Source: Coprobacillus sp. CAG:698
Lineage (GTDB): Bacteria > Bacillota_I > Bacilli_A > ML615J-28 > CAG-698
Direction: 5' to 3'
DNA: 64,000 bases
Assembly (NCBI GenBank): GCA_000431235.1
Contig: HF988734.1
Location: 155,848-219,847 of the forward strand
Part shown: in pieces, positions 18,010 through 40,721 of the stretch
Numbering within the stretch: position 1 is the stretch's first letter
How the letters are laid out: every line of letters begins with the position of its first letter
Position numbers and translations under genes: made by a program
Notes under the pieces: model-generated
Database searches by the model: none
Seen by the model: the letters and a program-made list of their open reading frames with translations, nothing else
Told to the model about the DNA's origin: nothing

Positions 18010-18012
18010 ATT

Positions 18013-20202: not shown

Positions 20203-20203
20203 A

Positions 20204-21277
20204 TTGAAAAACGAAGAACTAAACAAAATATTACTTGACGAAGTCGAAAAAGGAACATTTCCTGGAGCTACATATGCGCTAGTTAGTGAATTCGGAACAT
20301 TTTATGGCGCAGTTGGATTTAAATCTTTGTACCCAACTAAAGAGACAAATAGTTTGGATACATTATATGATATGGCTTCTTGTACAAAAGTTATTTGTAC
20401 AACAACTTGTATATTTAAATTAATGGAGCAAGGGAAAATTAGATTATTTGATAGTGTTTCTATGTATTTACCTAAATTTAAACATACAGACATATTAATA
20501 TGGGATTTAATGACTCATACATCTGGCCTTCCTGCTGGATTGGGCGGAGTAACAAAAATTAAATCACGTGAGGAAGCTTTAGAAAAGCTTTACGCAACAG
20601 AAACAGTTTATCCTAAGAATTCGAAAATATTATATTCTGATTTAGGATATGTTCTTTTAGGACTTGTCATTGAGAGCATAAGCGGATGTTCATTAGATGA
20701 ATATGCAAGAATTAATATTTTTGAACCATTGGAAATGTTTGACACAACTTTTAAACCAAAAGATAAAGAAAGGTGTGCTCCAACAGAAGAACGTAATGAT
20801 GATATTGTCAAAGGTATTGTTAGAGGACATGTTCATGATGAGTTATCTTACATCTTAGGTGAAGTTAGTGGTCATGCTGGTTTATTTAGTACTGCTAGTG
20901 ATATACAACATTTTATTGAAATGGTTCTAAACAATGGTATCTATAATAATAAGAGAATACTTTCAAGAGCTACTATAGATCTAATGTTCACTCCACAAGT
21001 TGAAGAAAAAAAAGGTGTTGCCTTAACGCTAAATACAAGGGGTTTAGGATGGATAGTGCAAGGTGATTACTGCTCTGCTGGAGATCTTGCAAGTAAAGAA
21101 ACAATTCTACACACAGGATTCACGGGAACAAATGTTTTTATTGATAGAATCAATAAAGTAGGATTTACTCTTCTATCTAATAGAGTTCATCCAACAAGAA
21201 ATAATACAAAGATTATCCCATTTAGAGGAAGACTTGGAAATTACATAATAGCTAATTTTGGAGGAAGAAATAAATAA
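20204..21277 (+). CDS. Serine hydrolase, beta-lactamase/PBP-like (class C-type fold)
   Basis: 'SCTKV' S-x-x-K active-site motif near residue 60 and overall AmpC/DD-peptidase-like length. Apparent TTG start with no clear RBS, possibly translationally coupled. Confidence 0.65.
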   Translation: MKNEELNKILLDEVEKGTFPGATYALVSEFGTFYGAVGFKSLYPTKETNSLDTLYDMASCTKVICTTTCIFKLMEQGKIRLFDSVSMYLPKFKHTDILIWDLMTHTSGLPAGLGGVTKIKSREEALEKLYATETVYPKNSKILYSDLGYVLLGLVIESISGCSLDEYARINIFEPLEMFDTTFKPKDKERCAPTEERNDDIVKGIVRGHVHDELSYILGEVSGHAGLFSTASDIQHFIEMVLNNGIYNNKRILSRATIDLMFTPQVEEKKGVALTLNTRGLGWIVQGDYCSAGDLASKETILHTGFTGTNVFIDRINKVGFTLLSNRVHPTRNNTKIIPFRGRLGNYIIANFGGRNK

Positions 21278-21282
21278 ATAAT

Positions 21283-22269
21283 ATGAATAATATAACTCTT
21301 AAGCCTTTTTCAAGAGAATACACAGAAAAAGTCGTTGACTTATGGAATAAAAATGCTGCTTGTAAGACTATTTACGCAGAACTAACAATTGAAGAGTTTA
21401 AAGATAAATTCTATAATAATCCTAATTATAAGGATGAAGGCAGTATACTTGCTTTTGATGGTGATTTATTAGTTGGATTTGGGAATGCTATTTATTATTT
21501 GGATTCAAATCCAGAAACTAGTCCTGCTTATATTAGTATGATCGTTGTTGAGGAAAGTTATCAAAGACATGGCATTGGCACAATGATACTTAAATCACTA
21601 GAAAACTATTTACGTAGTGAAGGAAGAAAATATATAAGAAATTATTTCGGATGTCCAATTAATTTGAAATGGTATGTTCCTGGTTATTATAAGCATGAAC
21701 ATTTAGGTGCTCCTGCAGTGCCATATAATACACCTATTTATTATCTATTCCTTGCTAATAACTATTATTCAGATGGACAACAAGATGGATTTCATATCGA
21801 TTTAACAAAATTTACTATGCCTGAAGTTGTTGTTAACAAAATAAAAGAAAACGAAAAAGATGGATATACAATAACAATTTATGATGAAAAATTGCATCAT
21901 GGATTTGATGAAATGTTTGATGCACTTCAAAACGAAGGCTTTCGAAGAACGGTTCATCGTGTTTTAGAAAATGATAGACATGCAAAAATCGTAATAGCCC
22001 AAAAAGATGGTGAAATACTTGGCTTTACAGGACCAGTTAAAACAGAACCAACTGGAAGAGGCTCATTAGGAGGCGTTGCAATCCATCCAAAAGCTCAAAA
22101 AAGAGGTTTAGGTAAAACAATGTTCTGTTACTTATGTTTAAAATCAAAAGAAAATGGAGCTAAGTTTATGACTTTGTTTACTGGTTCAGAAAACAGAGCA
22201 CGTAACATCTACTTACACGCTGGACTTAAAATTGTACAATCATTTAATATAATGAGGAAGGAATTATAA
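21283..22269 (+). CDS. Tandem-GNAT N-acetyltransferase
   Basis: Two acetyl-CoA binding motifs ('QRHGIGTMILKSLENYL' and 'QKRGLGKTMFCYLCL'). Confidence 0.65.
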   Translation: MNNITLKPFSREYTEKVVDLWNKNAACKTIYAELTIEEFKDKFYNNPNYKDEGSILAFDGDLLVGFGNAIYYLDSNPETSPAYISMIVVEESYQRHGIGTMILKSLENYLRSEGRKYIRNYFGCPINLKWYVPGYYKHEHLGAPAVPYNTPIYYLFLANNYYSDGQQDGFHIDLTKFTMPEVVVNKIKENEKDGYTITIYDEKLHHGFDEMFDALQNEGFRRTVHRVLENDRHAKIVIAQKDGEILGFTGPVKTEPTGRGSLGGVAIHPKAQKRGLGKTMFCYLCLKSKENGAKFMTLFTGSENRARNIYLHAGLKIVQSFNIMRKEL

Positions 22270-22270
22270 A

Positions 22271-23206
22271 ATGCTTTTAAAGAAACTATCAAAAGGAGAC
22301 ACTATAGGTATTATTAATCCTGCTTTTAAAAATCCTCAAGATGTTTATACAAGATATAGTAAAATGATAGAGACAATTGAAAGCAAAGGTTATAAAATAA
22401 AGTTTGGAAAAACTTTTACACTTGAAAATGGATATTTAGCTGGAACAGATGAAGAGCGTGCTAATGATTTAAATGAAATGTTTAAAGATGAAACAGTAAA
22501 AGCTATTATCTGTATGCGTGGTGGATATGGAGCTAGTCGAATGGTTGATTTAGTAGATTATGCTTTAATAAAGGATAATCCTAAAATTATATGTGGATTT
22601 AGTGATATAACAGTTTTACTAAATGCTATTTATAAAAAAACTGATATGCCAACCATTCATGGATTAGTGTCTTTATATATTGGTTCAAAATCATGTGATG
22701 AATTTTCCGAAAATGATTTTTGGAAAGTACTTACTGAAAACCAAAAAGGAAGAGTATTAGAAAATCCAAATAAAGATGCGAAAACATTAATACCAGGTAA
22801 AGTAACTGGAAAACTTGTGGGCGGAAACTTAAGCTTAATAGCTACGCTTGTCGGTTCTGAATATGAAGTTGATTTTACTGATAAGATTGTTTTCATTGAA
22901 GAAGTAACTGAAGAACCTTATCAAATAGATAGATACTTTTCTTCCATAAAACTAAGAAAAATGTTTGAAAAAGCAAAAGGATTTGTTTTTGGATACTTTT
23001 CAGAATGTGAACCAAGTGAAGGAAGGAAAGGAACACAATCATATTTAGATATAATAAAAGATTATGTTGGAAACCTTAACAAACCAACAATATATGATTT
23101 TGCTTGTGGACACAGTTTCCCTTTCATTAATCTTCCAATTGGTACATTAGTAACTTTAGATGCAAATAATAAAAAAATCATTATAGAGGAGGAAATCTAT
23201 GAATAG
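22271..23206 (+). CDS. LD-carboxypeptidase (peptidase S66, LdcA/MccF family)
   Basis: 'ICMRGGYGASRMVDLVDY' S66 signature region; 311 aa. Confidence 0.75.
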   Translation: MLLKKLSKGDTIGIINPAFKNPQDVYTRYSKMIETIESKGYKIKFGKTFTLENGYLAGTDEERANDLNEMFKDETVKAIICMRGGYGASRMVDLVDYALIKDNPKIICGFSDITVLLNAIYKKTDMPTIHGLVSLYIGSKSCDEFSENDFWKVLTENQKGRVLENPNKDAKTLIPGKVTGKLVGGNLSLIATLVGSEYEVDFTDKIVFIEEVTEEPYQIDRYFSSIKLRKMFEKAKGFVFGYFSECEPSEGRKGTQSYLDIIKDYVGNLNKPTIYDFACGHSFPFINLPIGTLVTLDANNKKIIIEEEIYE

Positions 23207-24518
23207 ACCTATTAAAAGATTTTGCTTTGATGGCAATATAAAATATTATGGCACTGATAAAGAAGTCTTAATAAGTGATGATTATAAAGAAAAAGACGAA
23301 GAGTTACGTGGAGTTTGGTTCTCTACAGTAGCTAATATTGATATTCCAAAAATGACTGATACAGGCGTAGAAAGTCAAGAAAAATTAAAAGAATATTTAC
23401 AAGATGTAATTAAAACGTTAAAGGAATATCATATGAATACTATAATATTCCAAGTGAGACCAGTTAATGATGCGCTATATGATTCTGCACTAAATCCATG
23501 GAGTAGCGTTCTAACAGGTAAAGAAGGAACAAATCCTGGATTTGATGTTTTTGGTTATTTTATGGATGAAGCAAAGAAGAATGGCATAGAAGTGCATGCT
23601 TGGATAAATCCATACAGAGCTGGAAGAGTAAACATTAAAGAAGCAAATATGACTAAAGAACAATTCTTAGAAACTTTAGCTCCAACGAACTTTGCAAGAC
23701 TTCATCCTGAATGCACTATTCTAACAAAGGAAAACAAACTTTTGTTAGATCCAGCAAATGAAAAAGTTATGGAATTTGTTAGTGATAGCATAATTGAAAT
23801 TGCTAGTAAATATGATATTAAAGCAGTGCACATTGATGATTATTTTTACCCATATGAGGATATCGCCGATGAGAACGAAGAAGAAAAGAAGAAAAAAGCA
23901 GGATTTGAAAAAACTAGTGATTTCCGTCGTGACAATGTAAATAAAATGATAAAACTTATTCATGATAAATTACAAAAACTAGATAAAAAAGTTGAATTTG
24001 GAATTAGTCCATTTGGAATTTATAGAACTAATTCAAAGTTCTATGAAAACAAAGATGATGAAGGTGCATGGGAACTTGGATCAAATAATAGTTCAGGATG
24101 CCTAACAAACTATAAAGGCTTATATGCTGATATTTATAAATGGATGGAAGAAGGCTGGATAGACTACGTAGTACCTCAAAATTATTTTGATATGGATAGC
24201 ACAAAACTTGATGATAAAAACAATGAAAAATGTTTAGTTAGATATGCGGATTTAGCTGACTGGTGGAGTTGGGCAGCTAAGAAAACAAATACAAAACTAT
24301 ACATGGGCCAAGCTTTTTATCGCTATAGCAAAGATGGTGCATGGGCAAATCCAGAAGAAATTCCTAATCAATTAAAGTACAATCAAAACTTAGATAATGT
24401 TTTAGGAACAATATTCTTTACATATAAAGATTTTCATAGAGATGATTGTGAAAGTATTATTAAGGGCAAAGAACTCCTTAAAAAGTTATGGACAAAGACT
24501 CCTAAACATGTGAAGTAA
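23199..24518 (+). CDS. Glycoside hydrolase-like family 10 (GHL10/YngK-like) protein
   Basis: 'MNTIIFQVRPVNDALYDS…GIEVHAWINPYRAG' is typical of the GHL10/DUF187 TIM-barrel family. Confidence 0.6.
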   Translation: MNRPIKRFCFDGNIKYYGTDKEVLISDDYKEKDEELRGVWFSTVANIDIPKMTDTGVESQEKLKEYLQDVIKTLKEYHMNTIIFQVRPVNDALYDSALNPWSSVLTGKEGTNPGFDVFGYFMDEAKKNGIEVHAWINPYRAGRVNIKEANMTKEQFLETLAPTNFARLHPECTILTKENKLLLDPANEKVMEFVSDSIIEIASKYDIKAVHIDDYFYPYEDIADENEEEKKKKAGFEKTSDFRRDNVNKMIKLIHDKLQKLDKKVEFGISPFGIYRTNSKFYENKDDEGAWELGSNNSSGCLTNYKGLYADIYKWMEEGWIDYVVPQNYFDMDSTKLDDKNNEKCLVRYADLADWWSWAAKKTNTKLYMGQAFYRYSKDGAWANPEEIPNQLKYNQNLDNVLGTIFFTYKDFHRDDCESIIKGKELLKKLWTKTPKHVK

Positions 24519-24523
24519 ATAGA

Positions 24524-24566
24524 ATAACTTCTTGATACTAGAAATGGTATTAAGAAGTTTTTTTAA
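24524..24566 (+). terminator. Rho-independent terminator
   Basis: AACTTCTT…AAGAAGTT stem followed by TTTTTTT. Confidence 0.55.
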
Positions 24567-24685
24567 TTGAAAGTGTTTAAACTTTTTGAAAGAAAATAGT
24601 TATTTTTAGTATTTTTTTTGTAAAATGAATAAATAAGTTAATAAAAGAAAATAATAATATAAAGAAAATAAATAAGGAGGATAAA

Positions 24686-25045
24686 ATGGAAAGAGAAAGA
24701 TGTGAAAACTGTAATGCTCCAGTATTTAATCTTAATGTTGATGAACTTTTTAAAAGATGCTCTTATTGTGGAAGCGCATTAGAAAAAAATGACATTAATG
24801 TTATGACTAATATAATAACAATAGAAGATATTTATTATAATGAAATAATAACAGGCCATAGATTGTATGTTGGTTTAAATCTAAAAAGCGATTATGAATT
24901 TTTAAATTTGAAAAGCGCTGAAATTGATAAAAGAATCGATAAACTAGTTAATAAACTATTTGATTATTTTAAAGCAATTGGGAAAAATAGTGAGAAGAAA
25001 AATATAATAAAAGCTATTAATAATATATATGATATTTTTTATTAA
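24686..25045 (+). CDS. Zinc-ribbon protein, hypothetical
   Basis: N-terminal CxxC…CxxC ('CENCNAP…CSYCGS'); strong AAGGAGG RBS. Confidence 0.4.
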   Translation: MERERCENCNAPVFNLNVDELFKRCSYCGSALEKNDINVMTNIITIEDIYYNEIITGHRLYVGLNLKSDYEFLNLKSAEIDKRIDKLVNKLFDYFKAIGKNSEKKNIIKAINNIYDIFY

Positions 25046-25355
25046 AAATTCATGTTAATACCTCTTAAGTTTTATAACTTATAAGGTTTTTTATTTTTCG
25101 TTTACAAAAAAATATTATAGCTATTACTTTATACCTTGTAAAAGCCAATATATTTAAATTGTTTTGGTAATAGAATTAAAAATTGTGAAACTTGAATTTA
25201 TATGAGTAAGGATTAAAAATCGATAAACCATGTTTATTTTATTAAATATTTAAACAATTTCAAAAATCTGTTGGTTTTTTCACCAATTAATGATATAATT
25301 ATATAGAAATTAAAATATAATATTTTCAACTTGAAGATATTAAAACATTAAATAA

Positions 25356-25377
25356 AACATTATGATATAATAATGTT
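25356..25377. promoter_or_regulatory. Perfect palindrome AACATTAT-GATATAAT-AATGTT overlapping a −10 box; candidate operator at the island promoter
   Basis: 8-bp inverted arms flank TATAAT, 25 bp upstream of the first island gene. Confidence 0.35.
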
Positions 25378-25401
25378 ATAAATTAAAGGAGAAATAAAAC
25401 T

Positions 25402-25953
25402 ATGGAAGTTTATGTAACTGGAAAAAAGATGGCTAACAATGTTGAAGTGCTTTGTTATAAAATGGATTCATTTGAAATAGATAAGAAGACAAAAATAATT
25501 GTCAGCAAAGGATATCGTGCACTTGTGTATATTGACAATAAATATTATGATACATTAAAAACAGGAACATATGAAGAATTCAAAAAAGAAAGAGGAAAAA
25601 GATGTGACATCTATACATTTGTAGAAGTAGATAATAAAATTGAATGTAAATATGGAGTTGGTAAATCTGGAAAAGTTTTAAACTCATATGGTAATTATGC
25701 AGTAACAATTATGGGAAGTTTCCAAGGACTTGAAAATTTAGTAAAGGAATTTAACGTGGAAACTAGAGATATTGATGCAATGGCAATTAGAGATAGAATT
25801 AATCCAATAATTCCAGAAGCATTTTCAAAACCAGAAGTTGTTGATGCAACAACTGCAAAGCAAGTATTAAAAGATACATTAACTAGTAAGTTAGCTACAT
25901 TCGGTTTAAAGTTAGAAGAAATTAACATTGAAGGAATCAATATGGAGGCATAA
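25402..25953 (+). CDS. Hypothetical protein (first gene of the Zn-ribbon protease/TIR island)
   Basis: 183 aa, good RBS, no confidently recognised domain. Confidence 0.4.
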   Translation: MEVYVTGKKMANNVEVLCYKMDSFEIDKKTKIIVSKGYRALVYIDNKYYDTLKTGTYEEFKKERGKRCDIYTFVEVDNKIECKYGVGKSGKVLNSYGNYAVTIMGSFQGLENLVKEFNVETRDIDAMAIRDRINPIIPEAFSKPEVVDATTAKQVLKDTLTSKLATFGLKLEEINIEGINMEA

Positions 25954-25954
25954 A

Positions 25955-26659
25955 ATGGGATTATTTGGAAAAGATTATAAAGAAGAAGATCGTTTATATC
26001 GTATAAAAATTAGAGAAAGATTACTTGAAATACCTGGATTATTTGATTCACCATCATCAAGTAAAATCGTTGATAATGGACTTTGTGCTCCATACTTTAA
26101 AGTTACAAAATCCACTATTGAAATGGATGAAAAAATAGACGAATTATCTAAGAGTATTGCATCTGTAAAAACTGAAATACCTGGATCTCAAAAGGTATAT
26201 GAGGGATTACTTGTGGAAATGTTTACGTATCGTAATGATGAATCAAATGTTTGTAAGGGTAAAGAATTTGAACAACTTTGCAAAAACTGGGAAGTTGATA
26301 AAGCCATGTGCGAAGCAAAAATTAAAATAGAGAATTTAAAAAAGCAAAAAGCCGAATTAGACCCTAATGATTTATATTATAATATGAAAAGTAAAAAAAT
26401 TGATGATGATATAAAAAGTGAAGCCGATACAATTAAGAGATTGTTAGAGGTAATGTTCTTAAATGACAAGTATTTAGGAGTTGTTAAAAAATCTGATATT
26501 GAAAATACAGTTAATGAGTGCGCTAATTCTACATCAAAAGACTTTGCTAAACAAGTTAACTTATTACGTAAGAAACGTGTTAAAAACGATTTAGAAAAGA
26601 ATCGTAAAGAAGATCAATACAAGTTATATTCTAATATGCTTGATGATTCTGATAACTAA
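25955..26659 (+). CDS. Coiled-coil hypothetical protein
   Basis: Starts MGLFGKDY after a GGAGG RBS and overlaps the upstream stop; K/E-rich and predicted helical. Confidence 0.4.
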   Translation: MGLFGKDYKEEDRLYRIKIRERLLEIPGLFDSPSSSKIVDNGLCAPYFKVTKSTIEMDEKIDELSKSIASVKTEIPGSQKVYEGLLVEMFTYRNDESNVCKGKEFEQLCKNWEVDKAMCEAKIKIENLKKQKAELDPNDLYYNMKSKKIDDDIKSEADTIKRLLEVMFLNDKYLGVVKKSDIENTVNECANSTSKDFAKQVNLLRKKRVKNDLEKNRKEDQYKLYSNMLDDSDN

Positions 26660-26662
26660 TGT

Positions 26663-27043
26663 ATGATAATAAAAATAGGTGAAAATACATATACTCAATC
26701 CGATATTCAGGAACTCAGAACGAGCATATGTAAGTTAGAAAATGAAATAAGTGAATGTGATAATACTATTGAATCTAAGATTTCAAAAGAAGAATTAAAA
26801 GCAGCTAAAGCTAAGAAAAAACAACTTCTCAAAGCTCTTAAAGAACTTAAAAAAGCAGAAAGAAGATTAGCTATTGTGTCAGATAAATTCAAAGAAAAAC
26901 CTTTTGAAAGTTACTATGATGACAAAGAAGTTGAGGAAATAATCAAAAAGCAAGCTGATAAATTAGTAGACGAAGAAGTGGAAAAAAATCGTAAAGAAAA
27001 ATCTTATAATCAATTCATTGATATGATTGATGATAAAAAATAA
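26663..27043 (+). CDS. Coiled-coil hypothetical protein
   Basis: 126 aa, highly charged with heptad-like repeats. Confidence 0.35.
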   Translation: MIIKIGENTYTQSDIQELRTSICKLENEISECDNTIESKISKEELKAAKAKKKQLLKALKELKKAERRLAIVSDKFKEKPFESYYDDKEVEEIIKKQADKLVDEEVEKNRKEKSYNQFIDMIDDKK

Positions 27044-27056
27044 ATGGAGAAACATT

Positions 27057-28307
27057 ATGCCTAAAAAATGTAAAGTATGTTCTGGCGAAAAGTACGTTCC
27101 ATGTACTGGAAGACCTGGATATGTAGAATGTATGTTCTGTGGAACTGTGTATTCAAATGATGAAATTGAAGAAACGGTTTCTGAAGAAAAGAAAAGTATA
27201 GATTTAATAAATACAATCGGAAAAGGTGTTTGTGAGATTGTTTGGACAGTTGAGAATTGCATGTACCAAGGAACAGGTTGGTACATTGGAAATGGCAATG
27301 TAATTACAAATGCTCATGTTGTTTTGGATGGCCAAGGATATCTTGGACATAAGTTAAATTGTAAATTTACTTATTTAGGTAAGGATGCAGTTTACATCGG
27401 TGAAGCAGAAAAACTTGATCAAGTAAATGATGTGGCTGTAGTAAAGATTAATGATGATGAACGTTTAAAACCTCATGCAGTTAAACTTGCTGAAAACCCA
27501 CAATATACAATTGGGCAAACAGTATATACTATTGGTAACACTGTTGGAAGAGGATTATCTCCTCAAAAGGGTATGATATCTCGCTTGGATGATATGGAGT
27601 TTAGTGAAGGTTGGAAAAAGCTAAACGCTGTACCATTGCTTCGTACAACACTAAATATCGACCATGGAAATAGTGGTGGACCATTAATTAATTCCAAAGG
27701 TGAAGCAATAGGATTAATGAGCAGTGGTCACGTTCAAGAATCTGAAGTGTCAATTTATTCGCAAACAGGAAGAATGGATAATGTTGTAGGTGTTGGTAGT
27801 ATTAAAGTTGATGAATTAAGTATTGCTGTTAGACTTATATGTGTAAAGAATTTATTGAATTCAAAAGAAATATATAAAGAAAAACAAAGACCACAAATAG
27901 AAGCACCTAAAAATGATGGTTTAGTAGACGTTCTTTTGACTTTGCAAATATCATACCTACCAAGTTTATTCTTAGAAAATTTTGATGTGTTTTCAAAAAT
28001 GATTCAAAGTCAAGAACTATTCTGTACTGTAGTTACCCAACTAGCACAAAATGTAGGGGTTAAATATGAATGTTCAGAAGATGATTTTATAATTAAGCCA
28101 TGTGCTAATGGAAGAAGTGTAATGATATTGTATCCAGATATGGTTATTAACGATAACTTATCAATTGTTCAAGTATTTTCACTTACAAAGAAGAAAGTAT
28201 ATGGGGTATTACCAGCAGGTATTCTTGTAGAGATAAAAGATGGACAATTACACAAAATACAAGACGTAGATTTAAATAACTTAGAAAACATAATTAATAA
28301 TTTATAA
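27057..28307 (+). CDS. Zn-ribbon + trypsin-like (S1/HtrA-fold) serine protease + unknown C-terminal domain
   Basis: N-terminus 'CKVCSGEKYVPCTGRPGYVECMFCGT'. Catalytic triad context 'VITNAHVV' (His), 'DVAVVKIN' (Asp) and 'GNSGGPLIN' (Ser). A ~150-aa C-terminal extension has no known motif. Confidence 0.7.
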   Translation: MPKKCKVCSGEKYVPCTGRPGYVECMFCGTVYSNDEIEETVSEEKKSIDLINTIGKGVCEIVWTVENCMYQGTGWYIGNGNVITNAHVVLDGQGYLGHKLNCKFTYLGKDAVYIGEAEKLDQVNDVAVVKINDDERLKPHAVKLAENPQYTIGQTVYTIGNTVGRGLSPQKGMISRLDDMEFSEGWKKLNAVPLLRTTLNIDHGNSGGPLINSKGEAIGLMSSGHVQESEVSIYSQTGRMDNVVGVGSIKVDELSIAVRLICVKNLLNSKEIYKEKQRPQIEAPKNDGLVDVLLTLQISYLPSLFLENFDVFSKMIQSQELFCTVVTQLAQNVGVKYECSEDDFIIKPCANGRSVMILYPDMVINDNLSIVQVFSLTKKKVYGVLPAGILVEIKDGQLHKIQDVDLNNLENIINNL

Positions 28308-28327
28308 GTAGAAAGGAGTAATAAAGT

Positions 28328-28852
28328 ATGAATGAAATGCTTAAAGCACTTAAAGAATACTTAGATAACGGAATAATTAGAGTTTTATGTAACCCAATAA
28401 CAAATTATTCATGCGTATCTTTTCATGATATAGAACATGGAGTTTATGTTAATACTGGATTAGGAGCATCTAGTATTCGTAGTGTTGGTTCATTACTTAA
28501 AATATATGAAAGTAAGAATAGTTTGACACCTAAAAAAATTTGTGAAATAACAAAAATTCCTGAAAGTGCATATGATAGAATTAAAAATCAATCTACTGAT
28601 TTTGATATTTATGATAAAAATCAAATATGTGTTCTTGCAATATGCTTTAAGCTAACACCTACACAAATTAGAAGGTTTTTGAATGCAGCTCATATTTTAT
28701 TACAACCACTATCATATTCTTTTGATGCAGCTTTTGATTTTTATATTAATAATTGGCATTACACAATAGATAACAAAGAAAACATTAATAACTTTTTAAA
28801 ATGTTGTAAGTATTCAGAAGAATATTTAGAAAAATGTTTGGGGTTCCACTAA
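28328..28852 (+). CDS. HTH-containing hypothetical protein
   Basis: 'TPKKICEITKIPESAYDRIKNQSTDFDIYDKNQICVLAICFKLT' resembles an XRE/Cro-type helix-turn-helix. Confidence 0.4.
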   Translation: MNEMLKALKEYLDNGIIRVLCNPITNYSCVSFHDIEHGVYVNTGLGASSIRSVGSLLKIYESKNSLTPKKICEITKIPESAYDRIKNQSTDFDIYDKNQICVLAICFKLTPTQIRRFLNAAHILLQPLSYSFDAAFDFYINNWHYTIDNKENINNFLKCCKYSEEYLEKCLGFH

Positions 28853-29874
28853 TGGCAAACATAAGTAAGTTATTAAGAATAATAGAAAAGCTAAAAAAAG
28901 AAGAAGGTGCTTTATTTGAAAGGTATCCTGATGAAAAATCAATAGATAAAGTTATTGATGAATTCACAACAATTATTACTAGAAGACAAGACGTAGAAAA
29001 ACCCGTAAATAGACTAGAATTAATTAAGCTAATTCTTGATCTAAAAGTGTTGGGTTTAGAAAATGTGAAGAAAATGTATGAAGTTTGTGGATATCCATTT
29101 AATTACAAAAAAACACTTGGTGATTATTATGATGAAGCTTTAAGAATATTTGTTGAAAATAATCTTTTTGATGGCAATCTCCCTGATAATTATCGATATG
29201 TTTACGAAATTAATAGCATTGATATTGTAGACAATTATGAGAAATATGAATATGTTTTAAAGAATATTATTTTAACACTTTACAAGATGAAATTTGGAAA
29301 AATAAATGGTGAGGAAGAACATCTTCTCTATAATCTTGCAATGCTTGAAGATAGATTTCTAGATACTGATCAAAATATAAAAAGATTACTTTATCCTAAT
29401 TGTAAAGAAATGGATGCCTTTAGAAATTATTTACTAAAATATGATGAAGAAAATCAAGGAACATATGCTCCTGAATATCAAGAAATAATACACGTTATAT
29501 TATTAACTATTTTAGATAATTTTTATGAAGACCGAAAAACATGTAAGATGTTTAGAAGAGTAATAAGTGATGTTCCAAGAAGTGTTTATAAAAAAATGTT
29601 TATGGATAAACTATTTGTTACTGAAATGTTTTCATATAATTACTTTGAATCATTTTATAAAAAAGTATTCTTAGATGATGACTATCAAGAAAAGGAAAAA
29701 GCATTAATAGATTTATTTACGATAATATTTACTAATCTTAAGACAATAAATGTGCCTATTGAAATTCCCCAAACAGTAGCTATGAAAATTAATTATAAAT
29801 TCTTAGGGCTAGAAGTTAAAGAAATGGTTAATCACTTTAAAAAAATTAAACATGAAATTGATAGAAGATTATAA
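28852..29874 (+). CDS. Alpha-helical hypothetical protein (possibly TPR-like); start overlaps the upstream stop (TAATG)
   Basis: ~340 aa, all-helical composition, translationally coupled to the HTH gene. Confidence 0.4.
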   Translation: MANISKLLRIIEKLKKEEGALFERYPDEKSIDKVIDEFTTIITRRQDVEKPVNRLELIKLILDLKVLGLENVKKMYEVCGYPFNYKKTLGDYYDEALRIFVENNLFDGNLPDNYRYVYEINSIDIVDNYEKYEYVLKNIILTLYKMKFGKINGEEEHLLYNLAMLEDRFLDTDQNIKRLLYPNCKEMDAFRNYLLKYDEENQGTYAPEYQEIIHVILLTILDNFYEDRKTCKMFRRVISDVPRSVYKKMFMDKLFVTEMFSYNYFESFYKKVFLDDDYQEKEKALIDLFTIIFTNLKTINVPIEIPQTVAMKINYKFLGLEVKEMVNHFKKIKHEIDRRL

Positions 29875-29885
29875 ACAAATTAAAT

Positions 29886-29904
29886 TAGGCCACTGGCCTT
29901 TTTT
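29886..29904 (+). terminator. Short GC hairpin (AGGCC ACT GGCCT) + TTTTTT
   Basis: Located after the helical protein gene and before the TIR gene promoter (TGTATAAT at 29953–29960). Confidence 0.45.
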
Positions 29905-30002
29905 AAAAGAAGTTTTAACTTGAAGATTTTTGTAGACAAAAACATAAAATAGTGTATAATATACTTATAAAAATAAGTCAATCACAAAGAAAGGTGAAAC
30001 TC

Positions 30003-30893
30003 ATGGAAGAAACAAAATCATTAATATGTACAAGATGTGGATCACATTATTTAGAAAAACAAAGTGAAACTGAATATAAGTGTTTAAGTTGTGATGCTAT
30101 AATTACTAAGGAAAAAGCCTTAGATTTTGAAGAACAATATAAAAAACTTCAAGCTGAAGGTAAGGCATTTGATATAGCTAACTTAAGAAGTTTAGTTAGA
30201 AAAGCACTAGAAGGGCATATTGATAAAGATTCACTTATTAAGTATTCACAAGATATATTAAGGGTTTTACCAGGAGATGTGCTTTCACTATTTTACATTA
30301 AATTTGCTAATCGTATAATTTATCCTAGTGATTATGAATATTATTTAAATCTTCTTTTGAAAGAAGCAACACAAACAGAAATAGATGAAATAATAGATAT
30401 AATAATAACTAATGCCAGATTTAGAGAAAAAGAACAGGTAATTAACATAATAAATAAGTTCTATAAAGGAAGAGAAGATAAACTTATAGAGCTAGAAAAA
30501 GCTTTAAAACAAAGAACGAAAGAAATAGATTTATTTAGTGATATACCTAGAGATATATTTATTTGTCATTCTTCACTAGATAAAGATAAAGTAAATGAAA
30601 TATTAAAGACGTTAGAAGAAGATGGAAATACATGCTGGATATCATCACGTAATATTCCATGGGATAGTGATAACTATTGGTTAAATATTGAAAAAGCAAT
30701 AAAATCATGTAATATCTTCTTATGCTTAAATAGTGTAAATACAATGCAAAGCAATGACTGCAGACGTGAAGTAGAAATAGCGAGCACTTTAAACAAGAAA
30801 AGAATAGAGTATAAGTTAGATGAATCTAGAGATATAACATTATTTAAACAGTTCTTTACAGGACAATGGTATCAATACAATGCAAAGCAATGA
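30003..30893 (+). CDS. Zn-ribbon + TIR-domain protein (C-terminus truncated by a frameshifting tandem duplication)
   Basis: N-terminus 'CTRCGSHY…CLSCDA'. C-terminal TIR motifs 'DIFICHSSLDKDKV…CWISSRNIPWDSDNYW…EKAIKSC…REVEIA' include the conserved Glu. The frame ends 4 codons into the second repeat copy. Confidence 0.7.
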   Translation: MEETKSLICTRCGSHYLEKQSETEYKCLSCDAIITKEKALDFEEQYKKLQAEGKAFDIANLRSLVRKALEGHIDKDSLIKYSQDILRVLPGDVLSLFYIKFANRIIYPSDYEYYLNLLLKEATQTEIDEIIDIIITNARFREKEQVINIINKFYKGREDKLIELEKALKQRTKEIDLFSDIPRDIFICHSSLDKDKVNEILKTLEEDGNTCWISSRNIPWDSDNYWLNIEKAIKSCNIFLCLNSVNTMQSNDCRREVEIASTLNKKRIEYKLDESRDITLFKQFFTGQWYQYNAKQ

Positions 30894-31015
30894 TTGCAGA
30901 CGTGAAGTAGAAATAGCAAGCAGTCTAAACAAGAAAAGAATCGAATATAAGTTAGATGATGCTAGAGATATAACATTATTTAAAAACTTCTTTACAGGAC
31001 AGTGGATAACAAATA
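30744..31015 (+). repeat. Diverged direct tandem duplication, 2 × 136 bp (~93% identity)
   Basis: Copy 1 is 30744–30879 and copy 2 is 30880–31015. The ATGCAAAGCAATGA(C/T)TGCAGACGTGAAGTAGAAATAGC… block is seen twice, with a period of 136 = 3n+1. Confidence 0.85.
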
Positions 31016-31245
31016 TTAATGACTTATTAGATAAAGTATATGACTTAAAACACAAAGAAACAAAGTTAAAAGAAGAAGCTAAAAAGCTCTTAAAAAGCAA
31101 AGAATATGAAAAAGCCAAAGAAGTATTTTTAGAAGTAAATGATGATGAAGCAAAAAAATATATAGTGTTATGTAATACTTTAATTTCCTCAACAAAGTTA
31201 ATGAAAAATAGCATGTATGAAGAAGCTAAAGCAAAACTATTATAA
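30880..31245 (+). CDS. Detached C-terminal portion of the TIR protein (re-reads the duplicated segment in frame, then a helical tail)
   Basis: Starts with 'MQSNDCRREVEIASSLNKKRIEYKLDDARDITLFKNFFTGQW', nearly identical to the end of the TIR ORF, then continues into a 75-aa helical extension. Confidence 0.5.
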   Translation: MQSNDCRREVEIASSLNKKRIEYKLDDARDITLFKNFFTGQWITNINDLLDKVYDLKHKETKLKEEAKKLLKSKEYEKAKEVFLEVNDDEAKKYIVLCNTLISSTKLMKNSMYEEAKAKLL

Positions 31246-31272
31246 ATAGATGATATAATCTATACCAAAGAT

Positions 31273-33546
31273 TTGCTTGAGGAATGTAGCCACAAGATAT
31301 CTTTAAATAGTACCATTAATTATGAAGTAAATAATAATATAAAGGAAGAAACAACTACCAGAGAAGAAACAAATAAAAATGACATATTAAAAAAAGCAAA
31401 GTTTTTGCTCAATCAAACAAAAGATTATCAAGAAGCTGAAAAGATACTATTTGAAGAAATAGCATATAATGAGAATAATTTTGAATTATGGTATTATTAT
31501 CTATATGCAATAACAAAAGGCTTAAAAGATAATAACCATAAAAATATTAATTTGGCATTTGAAAATTTAAAGAAATTAGTACCTAATGAAAGAAAAAAAG
31601 ATATTCAAGATTTAGATAATAGATTAAATCCAGTTACAATAAAACGATTAGAAGAAGAGAAGGAAAGGAAAATAGAAGAAGAAAGAGAAAAAGTACAAAA
31701 AGAATATGACGCAAAAATAGAAAAAGAACAAGAAAAACTAAATATAATAAAACTTAAAGTAAAACAAATTGATGAAGAAACTGATAATAAGATAAATAAT
31801 CATCATAAAATTCTTATGAATGCAATTGATGAATTTAAGAAAAAGAATATAATTAGTAAAACAAGTAAAACTGATTTTATTTACTTTGGGTCATATCCTC
31901 AAACATTAAAAAATGCCAATGTGAAAATAATTAGTAAAGAAACTGATGAAAGAGGATATTATTCAGGAAGTGATGGAAGTAAGTATCAATTGGTAAACAA
32001 AGGTTTATTTAAAAAGTTCTATTACAAAGTAGAGCCTATTAGATGGCTAATTGTTAAACATGATAAAGAAAGTATGTTTGTTATTAGTGATATGATAATT
32101 GACAACCATATATATGATAATTATACGTATAATTATGAAGAATCAGAAATAAGATCATGGCTTAATAAAGAATTTTATAACAAAGCCTTTACTGATAAGG
32201 AAAAGAAAATTATACAAACAACTTTAGTTGATAATTCTCTTACATCAACATGTGAAATAAATAACCCATATATATGTAGTAATACAATTGATAAAATATT
32301 CTTATTAAGTACTGAAGAAGTGACTAGCTCAGCATATGGATTTTCTAAAAACAAATTACCTTGTAAGAAAGTAACAGATTATGCTAAAGAGTTAGGGGCA
32401 ATAGAAATAATGGGTCAAGGAAATTATTATCTTCGTTCCTCAAAAAAATATAAAGATACATATAATGTTTGTATGGTTACCTCAGATAAGTCACTTAGTG
32501 CTACGTTAATAAATAGTTCTTTTGTAGGTACAGTTCCAGCAATGCTTCTATCATTAAGTCTAGATACAAATGTTTGTAAAGAACGCTGTGTAAAAGAATT
32601 AAATAGTGATAAAGAATTAGAAGCGCTAAGAGAAGAAAAGAATAAGCTTTTAAAAAATCAAACATTAGTAAAAGATATGATAACAAAGCTAGAAGCAGAA
32701 AAGAAAGAAACTCTACTAAAGTATATAGGATTAATAACTAGCTTAAAGAAAGATACTATAAGTTTTGGTTCATATCCTCAAACAATAAAAGACAAAAATG
32801 TTACGATAACAACTACTTTCCCTGATAATAACGGTTATTATTTAGGTAGTGATGGTGAATATTATGCTAAGCTAATAGCTAATCCTCATATCAAAAATGA
32901 GAAGTATTACTATTCAAATAATGAAGAAATAATAAGTGGGAAAGAATATTATTTCAAAGTTGAACCAATTATCTTTAATAAAATTCACGGGACAAATAAG
33001 GATTTCTATTTGTCATCAAAAATAATTGAAACAATGGCTTATCAGGATGTATATTATCAAGATGGAAATAAATATTATGTAAAAACAGGAGTAGCAGCAA
33101 ATAATTATGAGTATAGTAAAGCTAGAAAAGTGTTAAACAATGACTTTTTATACAAAGCCTTTACCCAAACTCAAAGAGATTTGCTTGAAAAAACTTATGT
33201 TGATAATAGTGCTGAATCAACTGGTGAGTCTGAAAATATACATGCCTGCCCTTCCACATATGATTATGTATTTTTGCCAAGTATAGAAGAAATGACTTTG
33301 AGATCTAATGGATTTAAAGCTAAAAATGAAGAAGATAAAAATAGAGTTAAAGAAACAACAGATTATGCTAAGGCTAATGGAGCTTATTTACGTAGTGGTT
33401 ATCAAAACTATTTCTTGAGATCACCAGATTCATGGCTTACAAGTTTTGTGAAAACTGTAACTACTAACGGTAAAATTATAGGCAATGATTTTAGCTATCC
33501 ACATAATGGTATATGCGTAGGAATTGTTTTAAAGCAATCTAAATAG
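31273..33546 (+). CDS. Large protein with a helical N-terminal region, coiled-coil and two tandem ~250-aa repeat domains (FGSYPQT…EPI…WL…YYLRS… type)
   Basis: The internal repeat 'KTDFIYFGSYPQTLKNANVKI…YYKVEPIRWLIV…' is paralleled by 'KDTISFGSYPQTIKDKNVTI…YYFKVEPIIFNKI…'. No signal peptide. Confidence 0.5.
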   Translation: MLEECSHKISLNSTINYEVNNNIKEETTTREETNKNDILKKAKFLLNQTKDYQEAEKILFEEIAYNENNFELWYYYLYAITKGLKDNNHKNINLAFENLKKLVPNERKKDIQDLDNRLNPVTIKRLEEEKERKIEEEREKVQKEYDAKIEKEQEKLNIIKLKVKQIDEETDNKINNHHKILMNAIDEFKKKNIISKTSKTDFIYFGSYPQTLKNANVKIISKETDERGYYSGSDGSKYQLVNKGLFKKFYYKVEPIRWLIVKHDKESMFVISDMIIDNHIYDNYTYNYEESEIRSWLNKEFYNKAFTDKEKKIIQTTLVDNSLTSTCEINNPYICSNTIDKIFLLSTEEVTSSAYGFSKNKLPCKKVTDYAKELGAIEIMGQGNYYLRSSKKYKDTYNVCMVTSDKSLSATLINSSFVGTVPAMLLSLSLDTNVCKERCVKELNSDKELEALREEKNKLLKNQTLVKDMITKLEAEKKETLLKYIGLITSLKKDTISFGSYPQTIKDKNVTITTTFPDNNGYYLGSDGEYYAKLIANPHIKNEKYYYSNNEEIISGKEYYFKVEPIIFNKIHGTNKDFYLSSKIIETMAYQDVYYQDGNKYYVKTGVAANNYEYSKARKVLNNDFLYKAFTQTQRDLLEKTYVDNSAESTGESENIHACPSTYDYVFLPSIEEMTLRSNGFKAKNEEDKNRVKETTDYAKANGAYLRSGYQNYFLRSPDSWLTSFVKTVTTNGKIIGNDFSYPHNGICVGIVLKQSK

Positions 33547-33583
33547 ACAAGTAGCAATAAAAAGCACAACTTGTCTTTTTGTT
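33546..33583 (+). terminator. Rho-independent terminator (AGACAAGT…ACTTGTCT + TTTTT)
   Basis: 8-bp perfect stem directly after the stop of the repeat-domain gene. Confidence 0.55.
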
Positions 33584-33779
33584 TGCTATTTAGATAAATA
33601 ATATAACTATATAAGGATTAATATGTACTTAAAGATGCATAAGTTAGATAGGTTCCAAGATTTAATTTTCATTAACTAACAATTTATCCCAATATGTTAT
33701 AAGTTATAACAAATAAATTGAAAAATTCCTTTAAAAGTGCTATAATAAATAATCAAATGAATTGATTTGGAGGATGAAT

Positions 33780-36700
33780 ATGAAGTCTATATTTAAATTA
33801 ATATATATGGTTGCAATAGTTTTTTTAACTTGTCTTTTCTTTATTTCTTGTAAAGAAATAGATAAAAACATTAGTAGCATAGAAATTAGTAATCTTGAAG
33901 AAGTTAGTATATTAAAACTTAATAATTTTAAGTATTCAGATATAGAGTTAACTGTTAAATATGAAAATGGTGAAGATGAAATAATTAATCTTTCAAGTTC
34001 GATGATGACAAAAGAAGATGCTTTAAAATTTAAACAAGTAGGTAAGCATGAAGTATATATTTACTATAAAGATATGAGCATAAAGTATAACTTTGAAATA
34101 ATAGCAAGTTCAAATGATTTCGATAATGTTATTTTCACTCTTGATGAAACATCATTTATATATTCAGGTATGCCATGTAAACCTAATGTCATTGTAAGCG
34201 GTAAGGATTTAACTCTAGATGAAGACTATTCGGTTGAATATATTAATAATATAAATGCTGGTACTGGAGTAGTTATTATAAAAGGCATTAATGATTATAA
34301 AGGCGAAAAAGTTTTAACATTTACAATTGATAAGAAAACTTTGATTATCAAAGCTAATAACATAACAATTAGTGGTAATGAAAAACCAGTATTTACAGTA
34401 TCATATAATGGATTTGTTTATACAGATGATGAGAATTCACTAATGGGAACTTTAAAAATTACTTGTGATTATGATGATAGTATTAGTGGAAATTATGAAA
34501 TTAATGCAAGTGGTTATACAAGTAATAATTATAATATTATTTATGAAAAAGGAACTTTAAGTGTAAATAACATTTATCTCGATAAAGCCGTTATTGAATT
34601 AGAATATTTATCGCATGCGTACACAGGACGTGAACTAAAACCTGATTGCTTAATTACAATTGATGGCCAAACAGTTAGTAGTTATAATTATGAAATCATA
34701 TATGAAAATAATAAAGATGCTGGAATAGCAAAAGTTGTGATTGTTGGTAAAAACTTATACTATGGAAGAATTGAAAAAGAATTCACTATTACAAAAGTGA
34801 ATTTGGAAATATCAATAAACAATGAAGAAATAAAGTATTTAGACTTAATACCTAATTATAAGATAAACTATATAGGATTTGTAAATTTAGATAATGAATC
34901 TTCTTTAGATGGAAAATTAAATATTGAGTGTTCTTATGATGGAACAGAAATAGGTTCTTATCCTCTTATCTTGAGTGGATTAACTTCTAACAATTATAAT
35001 ATTATTTATAAAAATGGACTATTAAAAGTTAATAGTAGAGAAATTGATAGCGTAACTATTGAATATGAAGAAATAACTTATGCAGGAAAATATTTAACAC
35101 CTGAGATCAAATGCTTAGTAAATAAAAATGAGTTAGTGCTTGGCAAAGATTTTGTAGTCAAATACGAAAATAACTTAAACTCAGGGAAAGCAGTAGTATA
35201 CATTTCTGGTCAGGGTAACTTTAAAGGAACGATAACAAAAACATTTACCATAAATAAAGCCAAACTTAATATTAAAGTAACTAATATGACTATTGATTAT
35301 GGTGATGATTATCCAGAGTTTGGTTATATTGCAAAAGGATTTCAAAATGAAGATAATATCTTAAGTTTATCAGGAACATTATTATTTAATACTACTTATA
35401 AAAATAATAGTAAGATAGGTGTTTATGATGTTTATGCTTATGGCGTACAATCAGATAATTATCTTATATCATTTGAAAAAGGATTATTAACTGTAAATAG
35501 TAAAGAAATTATCGAAGAAAATATAATCTTAGATAATACTTCATTTACTTATACGGGAAGAGAAATCAATCCAATTGTCAAGGTGAATGTAAACAAAACT
35601 TTAGGGCTAAACACTGATTACAAAATCGAAATACAAGATAATTTATTTGCTGGAACAGGTAAAGTAATTGTAACAGGAATAGGTAATTACTCTGGAATAG
35701 TTACCAAACAATTTACAATTGCTCCAAAAGACTTACATATAGTGATAAATGGATTCAACATAAAGTATGGTGATGAATTAGCAAGTTATGATGTTTCTTA
35801 TAATGGATTTGTAAATGGTGAAGATCTTGCAAACCTAGAAGGTAATTTACTAATCACTACTGATTATAAGAAATTTAGTAATGTGGGTACATACTTAATC
35901 GAAGGTACCGGATTAACATCTAACAATTATAAGATTATATATGATTGTGGGAAAATAAATGTTTCTCCACAGAATTTAAGCAATGTAACGTATAGTATCG
36001 AGAGTAAAGACTATGTATATAATGCTGAAGCAATTAAACCAGAATTAACACTATCATATATGCTTATAAAACTTAAAGAAAATACTGACTATACTATTTC
36101 TCTTTTAAATAATATAAATTATGGCAAGGCAACGTTAGAAATTAATGGTATAAATAATTATACAGGAACCATCAAAGATACTTTTATAATACAAAAGAGA
36201 AATATAACTATAAAATCAAATGATTATAGTTTAAAATATCTAGAAGAAGTTGAAAAATACGATTGTATTATTACAAATCTTCCTGATGCATATAATCAAG
36301 ATTTAGTAAAAACAGAATTAGTTTTCTCAACAACTTATGAAAAAGGTAAAAAAATAGGTAACTATGAATTAATAGTTTCTGGATTTGCTCAAGATAACTT
36401 TAATGTAACTTATGAAAAAGGAATTATAACTTTAGCATACACAGATAAATTTAATGGTGAAGGTACACTAGATAATCCATACATTTTATCAAATGTTAAT
36501 GATATAATGGGATTGAGTGAAAAAGTGTTATCAGGTGAAAAGTATAAAAATAAATATTTTATTTTATCTAATGATATTGATTTTTCAGGATATTCACTTA
36601 CACCAATAGGTGATAAAGATCATTACTTCCAAGGTTATTTTAATGGCAAAGGAAGGGAAATAAAGAACTTTAGTATTACAGGTTCTAAGTCATCTTATAT

Positions 36701-38780: not shown

Positions 38781-38801
38781 TTAATTAGCTCTAAGGGTTA
38801 A

Positions 38802-39971: not shown

Positions 39972-39986
39972 GGTGGGTAATGACTT

Positions 39987-40184
39987 ATGATAAAAAATAT
40001 CTTTATGTATCTTCTGGATTTAGTTCTTGAATGTGGTTTAGTAATATGGTTTTTATATAACGTAGGTTCTAATAAATATTTAATTATTCCTATAATTGCA
40101 GTTAGCATTCTTATTATTAGCACAATAATTTGCTTTATTAAAACAGTTTTTATAGGAAGAAAATATTATATCTTCTATGTTTAA
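39987..40184 (+). CDS. Putative RHS immunity protein, N-terminal copy (2-TM), truncated by a tandem duplication
   Basis: 65-aa two-helix membrane protein immediately 3' of the toxin tip; it ends 7 codons past the duplication junction. Confidence 0.45.
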   Translation: MIKNIFMYLLDLVLECGLVIWFLYNVGSNKYLIIPIIAVSILIISTIICFIKTVFIGRKYYIFYV

Positions 40185-40317
40185 TTATTGAGTGTGGTTT
40201 AATAGCATGGTTTGTCTATAATTTAGGTTCTGATAAATATTTTATTATTTCCATAACTGTAGTTAGCATTCTTCTTATTATAACAATAATTAGCTTTATT
40301 AAAACAGTTTTTATAGG
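39993..40317 (+). repeat. Diverged direct tandem duplication, ~2 × 160 bp, with a +1 indel in copy 2
   Basis: '…CTTCTGGATTTAGTTCTTGAATGTGGTTTAGTAATATGG…GGAAGAAAATAT' is followed by '…CTTCTATGTTTAATTATTGAGTGTGGTTTAAATAGCATGG…GGAAGAAAATAT'. The period is 160 bp between the TGTGGTTTA landmarks at 40032 and 40192. Confidence 0.8.
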
Positions 40318-40609: not shown

Positions 40610-40721
40610 TAATTTCATTTTGTTATTATTAAGGTTAAAAAAAGAACTATAAAAATGGAAGACAATAAAAGTTAGATTTATTGTTATATGAACTAGTTTT
40701 TAGAAAAAAATTTTATTTAGT

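Follow-up and report, generated by a model that had tools for sequence, protein, structure and literature searches.

The subject of this analysis is a block of nine co-directional open reading frames (ORFs) at 25402-33546 of a 64,000-nucleotide (nt) stretch of Coprobacillus sp. CAG:698 (GenBank assembly GCA_000431235.1, contig HF988734.1, positions 155,848 to 219,847, forward strand; ~27% G+C), hereafter the window. An earlier note, written from the letters of the window, had read this block as a single defence island in which a Zn-ribbon trypsin-like protease is paired with a Zn-ribbon TIR protein. We find that the block very probably joins two unlinked loci, A and B, fused by an assembly error, and that the protease belongs to locus A, a rare unnamed operon of at least 12 genes that matches no PADLOC system. 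This larger operon is the object of interest, half of it lying outside the window owing to the mis-join, and the functional context of the protease (an AAA+ ATPase, ESCRT-III-like proteins and a second protease) is invisible in the window. Tentatively, we propose that the operon may encode an ESCRT-III/Vps4-type machine equipped with exchangeable TIR effectors.

The composite nature of the window emerges from comparison with independent contigs (numbered L001-L028), among which L001-L007 and L012-L019 are human-gut metagenome contigs found via exact-protein look-ups. In blastn alignments, window positions 17053-30869 match the locus A contigs L001-L007 at 99.4-99.97% identity and then diverge, and positions 30865-40166 match the locus B contigs L012-L019 at 99.7-99.98% identity. 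The former set carries the protease and the latter the 757-amino-acid (aa) protein that closes the block, preceded by upstream genes that differ wholly: two Big_2-Trypsin_2 proteases, a DUF5131 gene and a gene for a 368-aa TIR protein. The genes at 25402-29874 together with the first 289 codons of the TIR gene are locus A, and 30865-40166 is locus B. The features around the joins are as follows.

30003..30869, + strand: 5′ part of the locus A TIR gene, the first 289 codons of a gene for a protein of 1018-1056 aa, cut by the join.
30729-31000: assembly junction 1, with the locus A copy at 30729-30864 followed by the locus B copy at 30865-31000, meeting within 30865-30869.
30865..31245, + strand: 3′ end of the locus B TIR gene (TIR-B), in the context seen in L012-L016; the ORF at 30880-31245 (121 aa) is residues 248-368 of TIR-B.
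31273..33546, + strand: DUF6273 protein of locus B, 757 aa, with two DUF6273 domains.
40008-40328: assembly junction 2, with two strain alleles of one 160-nt segment in tandem, joined at 40167.

At junction 1 the alignment shows the locus A allele abutting the locus B allele in a blunt join, and the two near-tandem copies (136 nt, 90% identical) each carry a different allele. Since 136 is not a multiple of three, the TIR frame is shifted, which creates an apparent 313-aa TIR ORF and an overlapping 121-aa ORF; the latter, previously taken for a coiled-coil partner gene, is identical to the C-terminal 121 residues of TIR-B. Junction 2 is built alike: its copies, 86% identical and again of different alleles, lie within a gene for a small hydrophobic protein, the first matching L016/L017 and the second L013, and three independent contigs (L017, L018 and L019) stop at 40164-40166, right at the junction. 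In a self-comparison of the whole window, near-tandem copies of this kind occurred at these two sites only. Furthermore, sample ERZ28621037 has an unbroken locus A on the 92-kb scaffold L004, which is 99.97% identical to the window, and its locus B lies on another scaffold (L018). The window proteins (CCY08209-CCY08223) come from a co-abundance-group metagenome assembly, and it appears very likely from these sequence comparisons that this scaffold concatenates contigs that had broken at paralogous or strain-variable repeats. A mis-join in a public reference-type assembly of this kind yields a fake operon and two fake genes, and would mislead defence-island mining.

The join could also be biological, a recombination between paralogous TIR genes that fused loci A and B and left a frameshifted TIR pseudogene. 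It does sit inside a repeat of two paralogous TIR genes that are 83% identical over their first 330 residues, and consecutive protein accessions run across it in the deposited record; moreover, the case for a chimera is based on other assemblies and not on the reads behind this scaffold, a point against our interpretation. However, homologous recombination predicts an in-register hybrid rather than a blunt join with a 136-nt duplication, and it leaves aside the like-styled join at 40167, where strain alleles stand in tandem and three independent contigs end. In a strain of the same cohort that is 99.97% identical, each locus is intact and on a scaffold of its own, and the truncated products are not on record elsewhere: exact look-ups of the truncated TIR ORF (296 aa) and the 121-aa ORF returned nothing, which is weak evidence, as gene callers may pick other starts. 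Neither the junction sequence nor intact locus A turned up in scans of Joint Genome Institute (JGI) metagenomes, an uninformative result, that collection evidently being without this species. On balance we consider a biological junction very improbable.

Freed from the join, locus A is one co-directional, tightly packed cluster present in a handful of uncultured gut Bacilli. Its 5′ order is a 183-aa protein, a 234-aa protein, in some lineages a 126-aa protein, the Zn-ribbon protease, a 174-aa protein, a 340-aa protein and then a variable slot; its 3′ order is a 189-aa protein, an AAA+ ATPase, four or five small helical proteins (202, 186, 277, 210 and 216 aa), a second trypsin-like protease and a DUF4011 helicase-nuclease. 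The part within the window, with the gene just upstream, comprises the following.

24686..25045, + strand: Zn-ribbon protein CCY08214.1, 119 aa, stand-alone, with a CxxC...CxxC motif.
25402..25953, + strand: 183-aa protein, first gene of the cluster, with a possible SPFH-like C-terminal half.
25955..26659, + strand: 234-aa protein, all-helical, starting MGLFGK.
26663..27043, + strand: 126-aa helical protein, by alignment and DNA repeat a truncated paralogue of the C-terminal half of the 234-aa protein.
27057..28307, + strand: protease, 416 aa, with a Zn ribbon, a trypsin-like (S1) domain and a family-specific C-terminal domain of ~170 aa.
28328..28852, + strand: 174-aa conserved protein, 40% identical to a 175-aa protein of L020.
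28852..29874, + strand: 340-aa conserved helical protein (346 aa if the start is 28834), 33% identical to the 353-aa protein of L020.
29887-29899, then 29933-29960, + strand: terminator-like hairpin and, after it, a promoter-like site, together marking the edge of the variable slot.

The complete locus is seen in L026, which runs through the protease, 174-aa and 340-aa genes, a TIR-Sel1 gene, stand-alone Sel1 proteins, the 189-aa gene, the AAA+ gene (332 aa), the 202-, 186- and 277-aa genes, a Trypsin_2 protease (272 aa), the 210- and 216-aa genes and a DUF4011/AAA_11/AAA_12/MTES_1575 helicase (1494 aa), beyond which lies a GH20 gene. L020 holds a colinear, tightly packed array (175 aa, 240 aa, protease, 175 aa, 353 aa, 212 aa, AAA+, 206, 180 and 284 aa, Trypsin_2, 214 aa, DUF4011 helicase) that lacks the 126-aa gene and contains no TIR or Sel1 gene. 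Order has been kept across considerable divergence: between the window-type lineage and L020 the protease is 32% identical, the AAA+ protein 64%, the 202/206-aa protein 50% and most genes 28-40%. The families are tiny, with 4-8 clusters each in 5.8 billion proteins (5 for the 202-aa protein, 4 for the 234-aa protein and 8 for full-length protease homologues), and a scan of GTDB species representatives with the protease alignment returned an unrelated Sphaerotilus protease only.

What fills the slot differs among lineages. In L021 it holds a 615-aa TIR protein and five Sel1 proteins, in L028 a 607-aa Sel1 protein, in L024 (after a 344-aa gene) two stand-alone DUF6273 proteins, and in L020 nothing. 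The conserved unit is therefore the operon of at least 12 genes, and the TIR protein is lineage-specific cargo rather than an obligate partner of the protease. In the window, the terminator-like hairpin and promoter-like site (29887-29960) lie between the TIR gene and the genes upstream of it.

The TIR domain itself is genuine. The ORF at 30003-30893 carries an N-terminal CxxC...CxxC Zn ribbon and matches TIR_2 (PF13676) with an expect value (E) of 1.6e-13 and 51.6 bits, above the Pfam cut-off of 28, so the earlier assignment of both features stands; the intact locus A protein scores 49.2 bits, the locus B protein 50.8 and the L021 protein 48.1. The Glu of catalytic TIRs is kept, as 'SNDCRREVEIA' aligns with 'SDWCWDELEQA' of CRISPR-associated Cat1, and this alignment indicates that a catalytic-type position is preserved. 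Among the first 287 residues compared, 285 are identical to the 1018-aa protein of L001, and the intact gene (1018 aa, or 1056 aa in some strains) is present in L001-L004, L007 and L026. It encodes, in order, the Zn ribbon, a helical region, the TIR domain, a TPR-like region, a charged coiled coil and two Sel1 arrays. From their 83% identity over the first 330 residues, the locus A and locus B paralogues differ mainly in the C-terminal repeat module.

The 757-aa protein, previously described as a repeat protein of the same block, does carry repeated modules in the form of two DUF6273 domains; its place in the block does not hold, as the gene belongs to locus B, with the paralogous TIR gene elsewhere in the genome. 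A single TAA (31243-31245) and a 27-nt spacer separate TIR-B (368 aa) from the in-frame DUF6273 protein, likewise in L012 (9971-10000), and in other strains the two are fused as proteins of 1135 or 1149 aa; the split reflects either a nonsense mutation that became fixed or genuine gene fission. L021 (2072-7009) supplies a third TIR-family architecture, a 1645-aa protein that combines TIR_2 with the Listeria-Bacteroides repeat (Flg_new); its gene is inserted upstream of the first cluster gene, separating it from the 119-aa Zn-ribbon gene. Stand-alone Sel1-repeat genes form arrays beside the TIR-Sel1 gene (L001 16238-18947, L021 13690-19115, L028 1590-3413); their number and boundaries vary among lineages and one 49+175-aa pair resembles a split gene, which suggests ongoing duplication and fission of Sel1 modules.

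Several features had favoured a self-contained nine-gene operon in which a Zn-ribbon protease and a Zn-ribbon TIR NADase use their ribbons as common sensors or tethers, with the DUF6273 protein included. The nine co-directional ORFs are present, the upstream region estimated at 350 bp is an intergenic stretch of 356 nt (25046-25401), and a hairpin and T-run do follow position 33546, where a closing terminator had been placed. Both domains and both Zn ribbons are real, Coprobacillus CAG:698 and L021 both have a TIR gene 3′ of the protease module, the second TIR paralogue at locus B is also near trypsin-like proteases, and the TIR resembles ThsB. Against this, the block is a chimera, its DUF6273 gene and 121-aa ORF coming from the other locus; L020 keeps 11 neighbours with no TIR gene; the slot of L024 is taken by DUF6273 proteins; a terminator-like hairpin and a promoter-like site stand between the TIR gene and the protease module; and the proteases of locus B, which are HtrA-like with Big_2/PDZ domains, bear no relation to the Zn-ribbon protease family. 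The colinear L020 cluster and the stand-alone DUF6273 proteins of L024 equally dispose of a conserved pairing of the Zn-ribbon protease with the Zn-ribbon TIR protein. We regard the nine-gene operon as highly unlikely.

The protease (27057-28307) was correctly recognized as a trypsin-fold enzyme with a Zn ribbon: Trypsin_2 (PF13365) is matched at E = 1e-21 and 78.6 bits (cut-off 27.6), and the triad (H87, D125, S206) and the four ribbon Cys of the CxxC...CxxC motif are invariant in 8/8 homologues. Its Trypsin_2 domain and His-Asp-Ser triad recall HtrA/DegP (S1C), and degP_htrA_DO and HhoA/B are its best NCBIfam matches. However, all NCBIfam scores fall far under their cut-offs (65.6 bits against 416 for TIGR02037), which leaves the protein outside HtrA/DegP, and unlike those enzymes it has a Zn ribbon and a private C-terminal domain of ~170 aa, and no PDZ domain, signal peptide or transmembrane segment was found in its 416 residues. 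It is predicted to be cytoplasmic.

The genes beyond the window are more informative about function. The AAA+ protein is a single-domain classical AAA ATPase (PF00004 at 1e-29), whose N-terminal 70 residues in L001 match the Pfam MIT domain at 2.4e-4 (21.6 bits, below the cut-off of 30); in profile comparison residues 5-56 run in register with the MIT domains of VPS4A/B, SKD1 and calpain-7 at E 0.1-1. Adjoining it are the small helical proteins, of which two paralogue families in three lineages match Snf7 (PF03357) from profile position 3-4, in register, at 4.9e-4, 7.4e-3 and 0.011 (20.2 bits for the 186-aa protein of L026, 16.4 for the 206-aa protein of L020 and 15.8 for the 187-aa protein of L028, cut-off 27.3). 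The 202/206, 210/214/216 and 277/284 families have a basic N-half (isoelectric point (pI) 9.2-10.6) and an acidic C-half (pI 4.2-5.1); the contrast is weak in the 186/180 family (net charge ~+3/-3, pI 9.2 vs 5.1-5.2). All 4/4 small-protein families end in a conserved amphipathic helix (DLDRIRKMLDG, EKLLDKIRKSM, VDRIKNMY, ISDLLKGLM). In ESCRT-III proteins, tail motifs called MIMs bind MIT domains, and the C-terminal helices here appear to resemble such tails. An AlphaFold2 (AF2) model of the 206-aa protein (pLDDT, the predicted local distance difference test score, 77.6) places helices at 6-49, 53-110, 116-146, 148-153, 162-175 and 189-199, that is, a hairpin of 44 and 58 residues followed by four shorter helices. 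Taken together, these profiles and the model lend moderate support, at about even odds, to the reading of the 3′ module as ESCRT-III-like proteins with an MIT-AAA+ ATPase.

The possible likeness to the archaeal and eukaryotic pairing of ESCRT-III with Vps4 (Cdv) is one of arrangement, an AAA+ protein with an MIT/TPR-like N-domain adjoining small Snf7-like paralogues, and of build, through the hairpin model, the basic-N/acidic-C polarity and the MIM-like C-terminal helices. The differences are that the host is bacterial, that the AAA+ domain is closer to Cdc48 D2, that family scores are sub-threshold, that no ESCRT-I/II or CdvA was found in locus A, and that two trypsin-like proteases and the 174-, 340- and 189-aa proteins are integral to the locus. 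In the literature, ESCRT homologues are reported in archaea 'but not in bacteria', with a Bacillus PspA-YdjI link noted (Makarova et al. 2024, PMC10936438), and a Vps4-like ATPase 'appears absent in bacteria' according to a 2025 review (PMC7619361), whereas Ravi et al. (2024) report that Vps4-like ATPases have occasionally been transferred to bacteria, with displacement of Snf7, and that bacterial gene neighbourhoods occasionally combine Snf7 with PspA (PMC11237479). Among the genes of archaeal ESCRT loci is one for an SPFH protein that has a coiled coil and a Zn ribbon (PMC10936438). A bacterial comparison is PspA/Vipp1 with SPFH (YdjI) and Zn-ribbon (YdjG) partners, which likewise bring together the ESCRT-III superfamily, an SPFH-like protein and a Zn ribbon in a Firmicute (PMC10936438, PMC11237479); in contrast, locus A gives no match to PspA_IM30, PspC or Toastrack, its SPFH match is sub-threshold, and it encodes proteases as well as an AAA+ ATPase. 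Several Snf7-like paralogues, an MIT-like AAA+ ATPase and dedicated proteases in one bacterial operon would make a new variant.

We put forward, as a tentative proposal that we rate as somewhat less likely than not, that locus A encodes a complete multi-paralogue ESCRT-III/Vps4-type machine of a gut Bacilli clade, set in a conflict context and fitted with exchangeable TIR-repeat effectors, of which 25402-29874 would be the upstream half (the genes from the 183-aa to the 340-aa protein). The machine would comprise four or five Snf7-like subunits with MIM-like tails, the MIT-AAA+ ATPase, the SPFH-like protein and two cytoplasmic proteases. In such a machine the ESCRT-III-like small proteins would polymerise, probably at a membrane; the single-domain AAA+ protein would dock on their tails via its MIT/TPR-like N-domain and remodel or disassemble the polymer; and the two cytoplasmic trypsin-like proteases may activate or clear components. 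The TIR-repeat proteins would act as plug-in NAD+-consuming effectors or sensors, with Sel1, DUF6273 or Flg_new arrays as binding modules. The most likely biological role is a response to envelope damage or phage conflict. If correct, this would be a bacterial counterpart of the archaeal/eukaryotic ESCRT-III/Vps4 pairing, linked to proteases and TIR effectors, and an experimentally tractable entry into the use of ESCRT-type polymers in bacterial envelope defence. For the account as a whole, which combines the chimera, the real cluster and this mechanism, our confidence is moderate.

A number of results weigh against the proposed machine, and some of them fit a soluble ATPase-protease conflict system instead, IetAS-like or another AAA+/protease module that performs no membrane remodelling. 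In that case the small helical proteins would serve as adaptors of coiled-coil type, as substrates or as regulators resembling antitoxins, and the ESCRT-III/MIT likeness would reflect generic helical-hairpin or TPR similarity. All Snf7 and MIT matches are below the Pfam gathering scores, and on present scores locus A cannot be filed in the ESCRT-III or Vps4 families. In the PDB the AAA+ domain is nearer to VAT/Cdc48/p97 D2 (7e-51) than to Vps4 (5e-28), which does not support Vps4 orthology; its N-domain profile matches single TPR motifs more strongly than MIT domains; and the AAA+ proteins of L020 and L028 gave no MIT match at the thresholds used. A Foldseek search of the PDB with the 206-aa model returned nothing significant (best E 0.25), and BAR domains head both fold lists, with other helical bundles also ranking above ESCRT-III. 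PDB sequence and profile searches with the 206-, 214- and 186/180-aa proteins yielded no ESCRT-III, and hhalign between the small-protein paralogue families gave short local matches only. Transmembrane segments were predicted in no protein of the Coprobacillus cluster (window and L001), so membrane association of the proposed machine is pure inference; the sole predicted segment is in the 272-aa second protease of L020 (residues 27-45). Further points against the proposal are that the SPFH assignment of the 183-aa protein is unconfirmed, neither a PDB profile search nor 1.84 billion representatives supplying a bridge, that contig counts suggest a cluster fixed in the species and not variable among strains, and that no mobile-element genes were seen around it.

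Also in favour of a soluble system are the two serine proteases, the conserved helicase neighbour of Hhe/PDC-S37 type, and PADLOC matches of the AAA+ protein to IetA (1.5e-28) and TRIP13 (1.3e-20). The IetA match is, however, no better than that to the generic PF00004, and the locus A proteases are trypsin-fold, unlike the subtilisin-like IetS, to which no match was found, placing the cluster outside IetAS. We consider the soluble system fairly unlikely and rate it below the ESCRT-III/Vps4-type machine.

The conclusion that the block belongs to no named defence system was borne out. PADLOC gave domain-level matches only in the window block, to a ThsB-like TIR (2e-7) and to the protease moiety of RT-Protease_XI. 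The TIR_2 domain with the conserved Glu of catalytic TIRs and the ThsB match recall Thoeris, but no ThsA (SIR2/Macro-SLOG), SAVED, STING or cyclase partner was found anywhere in the full locus A. Across the window block, L026 and L020 the only ThsA1 match was to the tail of a 180-aa helical protein (2.4e-4), which does not identify a ThsA. Unlike the TIR proteins of Thoeris and related modules, those described here are fused to a Zn ribbon and to Sel1, DUF6273 or Flg_new arrays, and are not conserved with their neighbours.

A link to conflict comes from the 3′ end of locus A, where the 1494-aa DUF4011-AAA_11-AAA_12-MTES_1575 protein matches the PADLOC candidate PDC-S37 end to end (1e-287) and Hhe at 1.7e-136. 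This helicase-nuclease is a conserved 3′ neighbour in L026 (14610-19094), L020 (9775-12809) and L028 (9648-14135), lying outside the window; it may be a partner of the cluster, or it may be a mere conserved neighbour. With TIR cargo in the variable slot and this neighbour, a conflict or defence role stays plausible, and that part of the earlier interpretation survives, although its core is not a protease-TIR pair. The helicase, the catalytic-type TIR Glu and the variable slot together favour a role in conflict or envelope damage. Its apparent fixation in the species speaks against the cluster being a mobile defence island, as does a lack of relatives in phages and plasmids: phages gave generic protease-domain matches only, and a plasmid search with the 340-aa protein gave no match.

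The remaining genes of the upstream half belong to very small families. The C-terminal half of the 183-aa protein matches SPFH-like profiles below threshold, Band_7_1 for the window protein (0.0058; 16.7 bits vs a cut-off of 24) and Band_7 for the L024 homologue (0.019; 15.5 bits vs 23.6), scores that do not place it in the SPFH family. It has 5 relatives among 1.84 billion representatives and is 28% identical to the 175-aa protein at the corresponding position of L020. The 234-aa protein forms a nine-helix bundle whose fold has neither a specific match nor one to ESCRT-III, and it is not assigned to ESCRT-III/Snf7. It shares with the 126-aa protein the tail EKNRKE..Y..[YF]..M[LI]DD (26594-26647 and 26981-27034), which is loosely like the ..IRKMLDG tail of the 202-aa protein and is kept in Coprobacillus-like lineages only. 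The 174-aa and 340-aa proteins have no match in Pfam, NCBIfam, PHROGs, PADLOC or the PDB, and an XRE-like helix-turn-helix proposed for the former found no profile support.

Upstream of the cluster, the ORF at 24686-25045 is indeed the small Zn-ribbon protein that had been noted there as a third of its kind. It has its own hairpin and T-run downstream and is therefore probably a separate transcription unit. Its Pfam matches are weak Zn-ribbon matches only, together with a Lar-like PHROG match (9e-5) and a weak Mu_Gam/Gp157-TOTE match (0.0071); the lead to a TOTE conflict system was set aside.

Two further observations concern the remainder of the window. The region 33762-40700 encodes a 1672-aa MBG_2/Glug-repeat protein, next a 389-aa TEN_YD-shell (RHS-like) protein and finally small strain-variable ORFs (153, 164 and 174 aa), an arrangement reminiscent of polymorphic toxin/immunity cassettes. 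A 65%-identical direct repeat (47885-48444 vs 49767-50323) corresponds to two adjacent paralogous genes encoding proteins of 614 and 643 aa.

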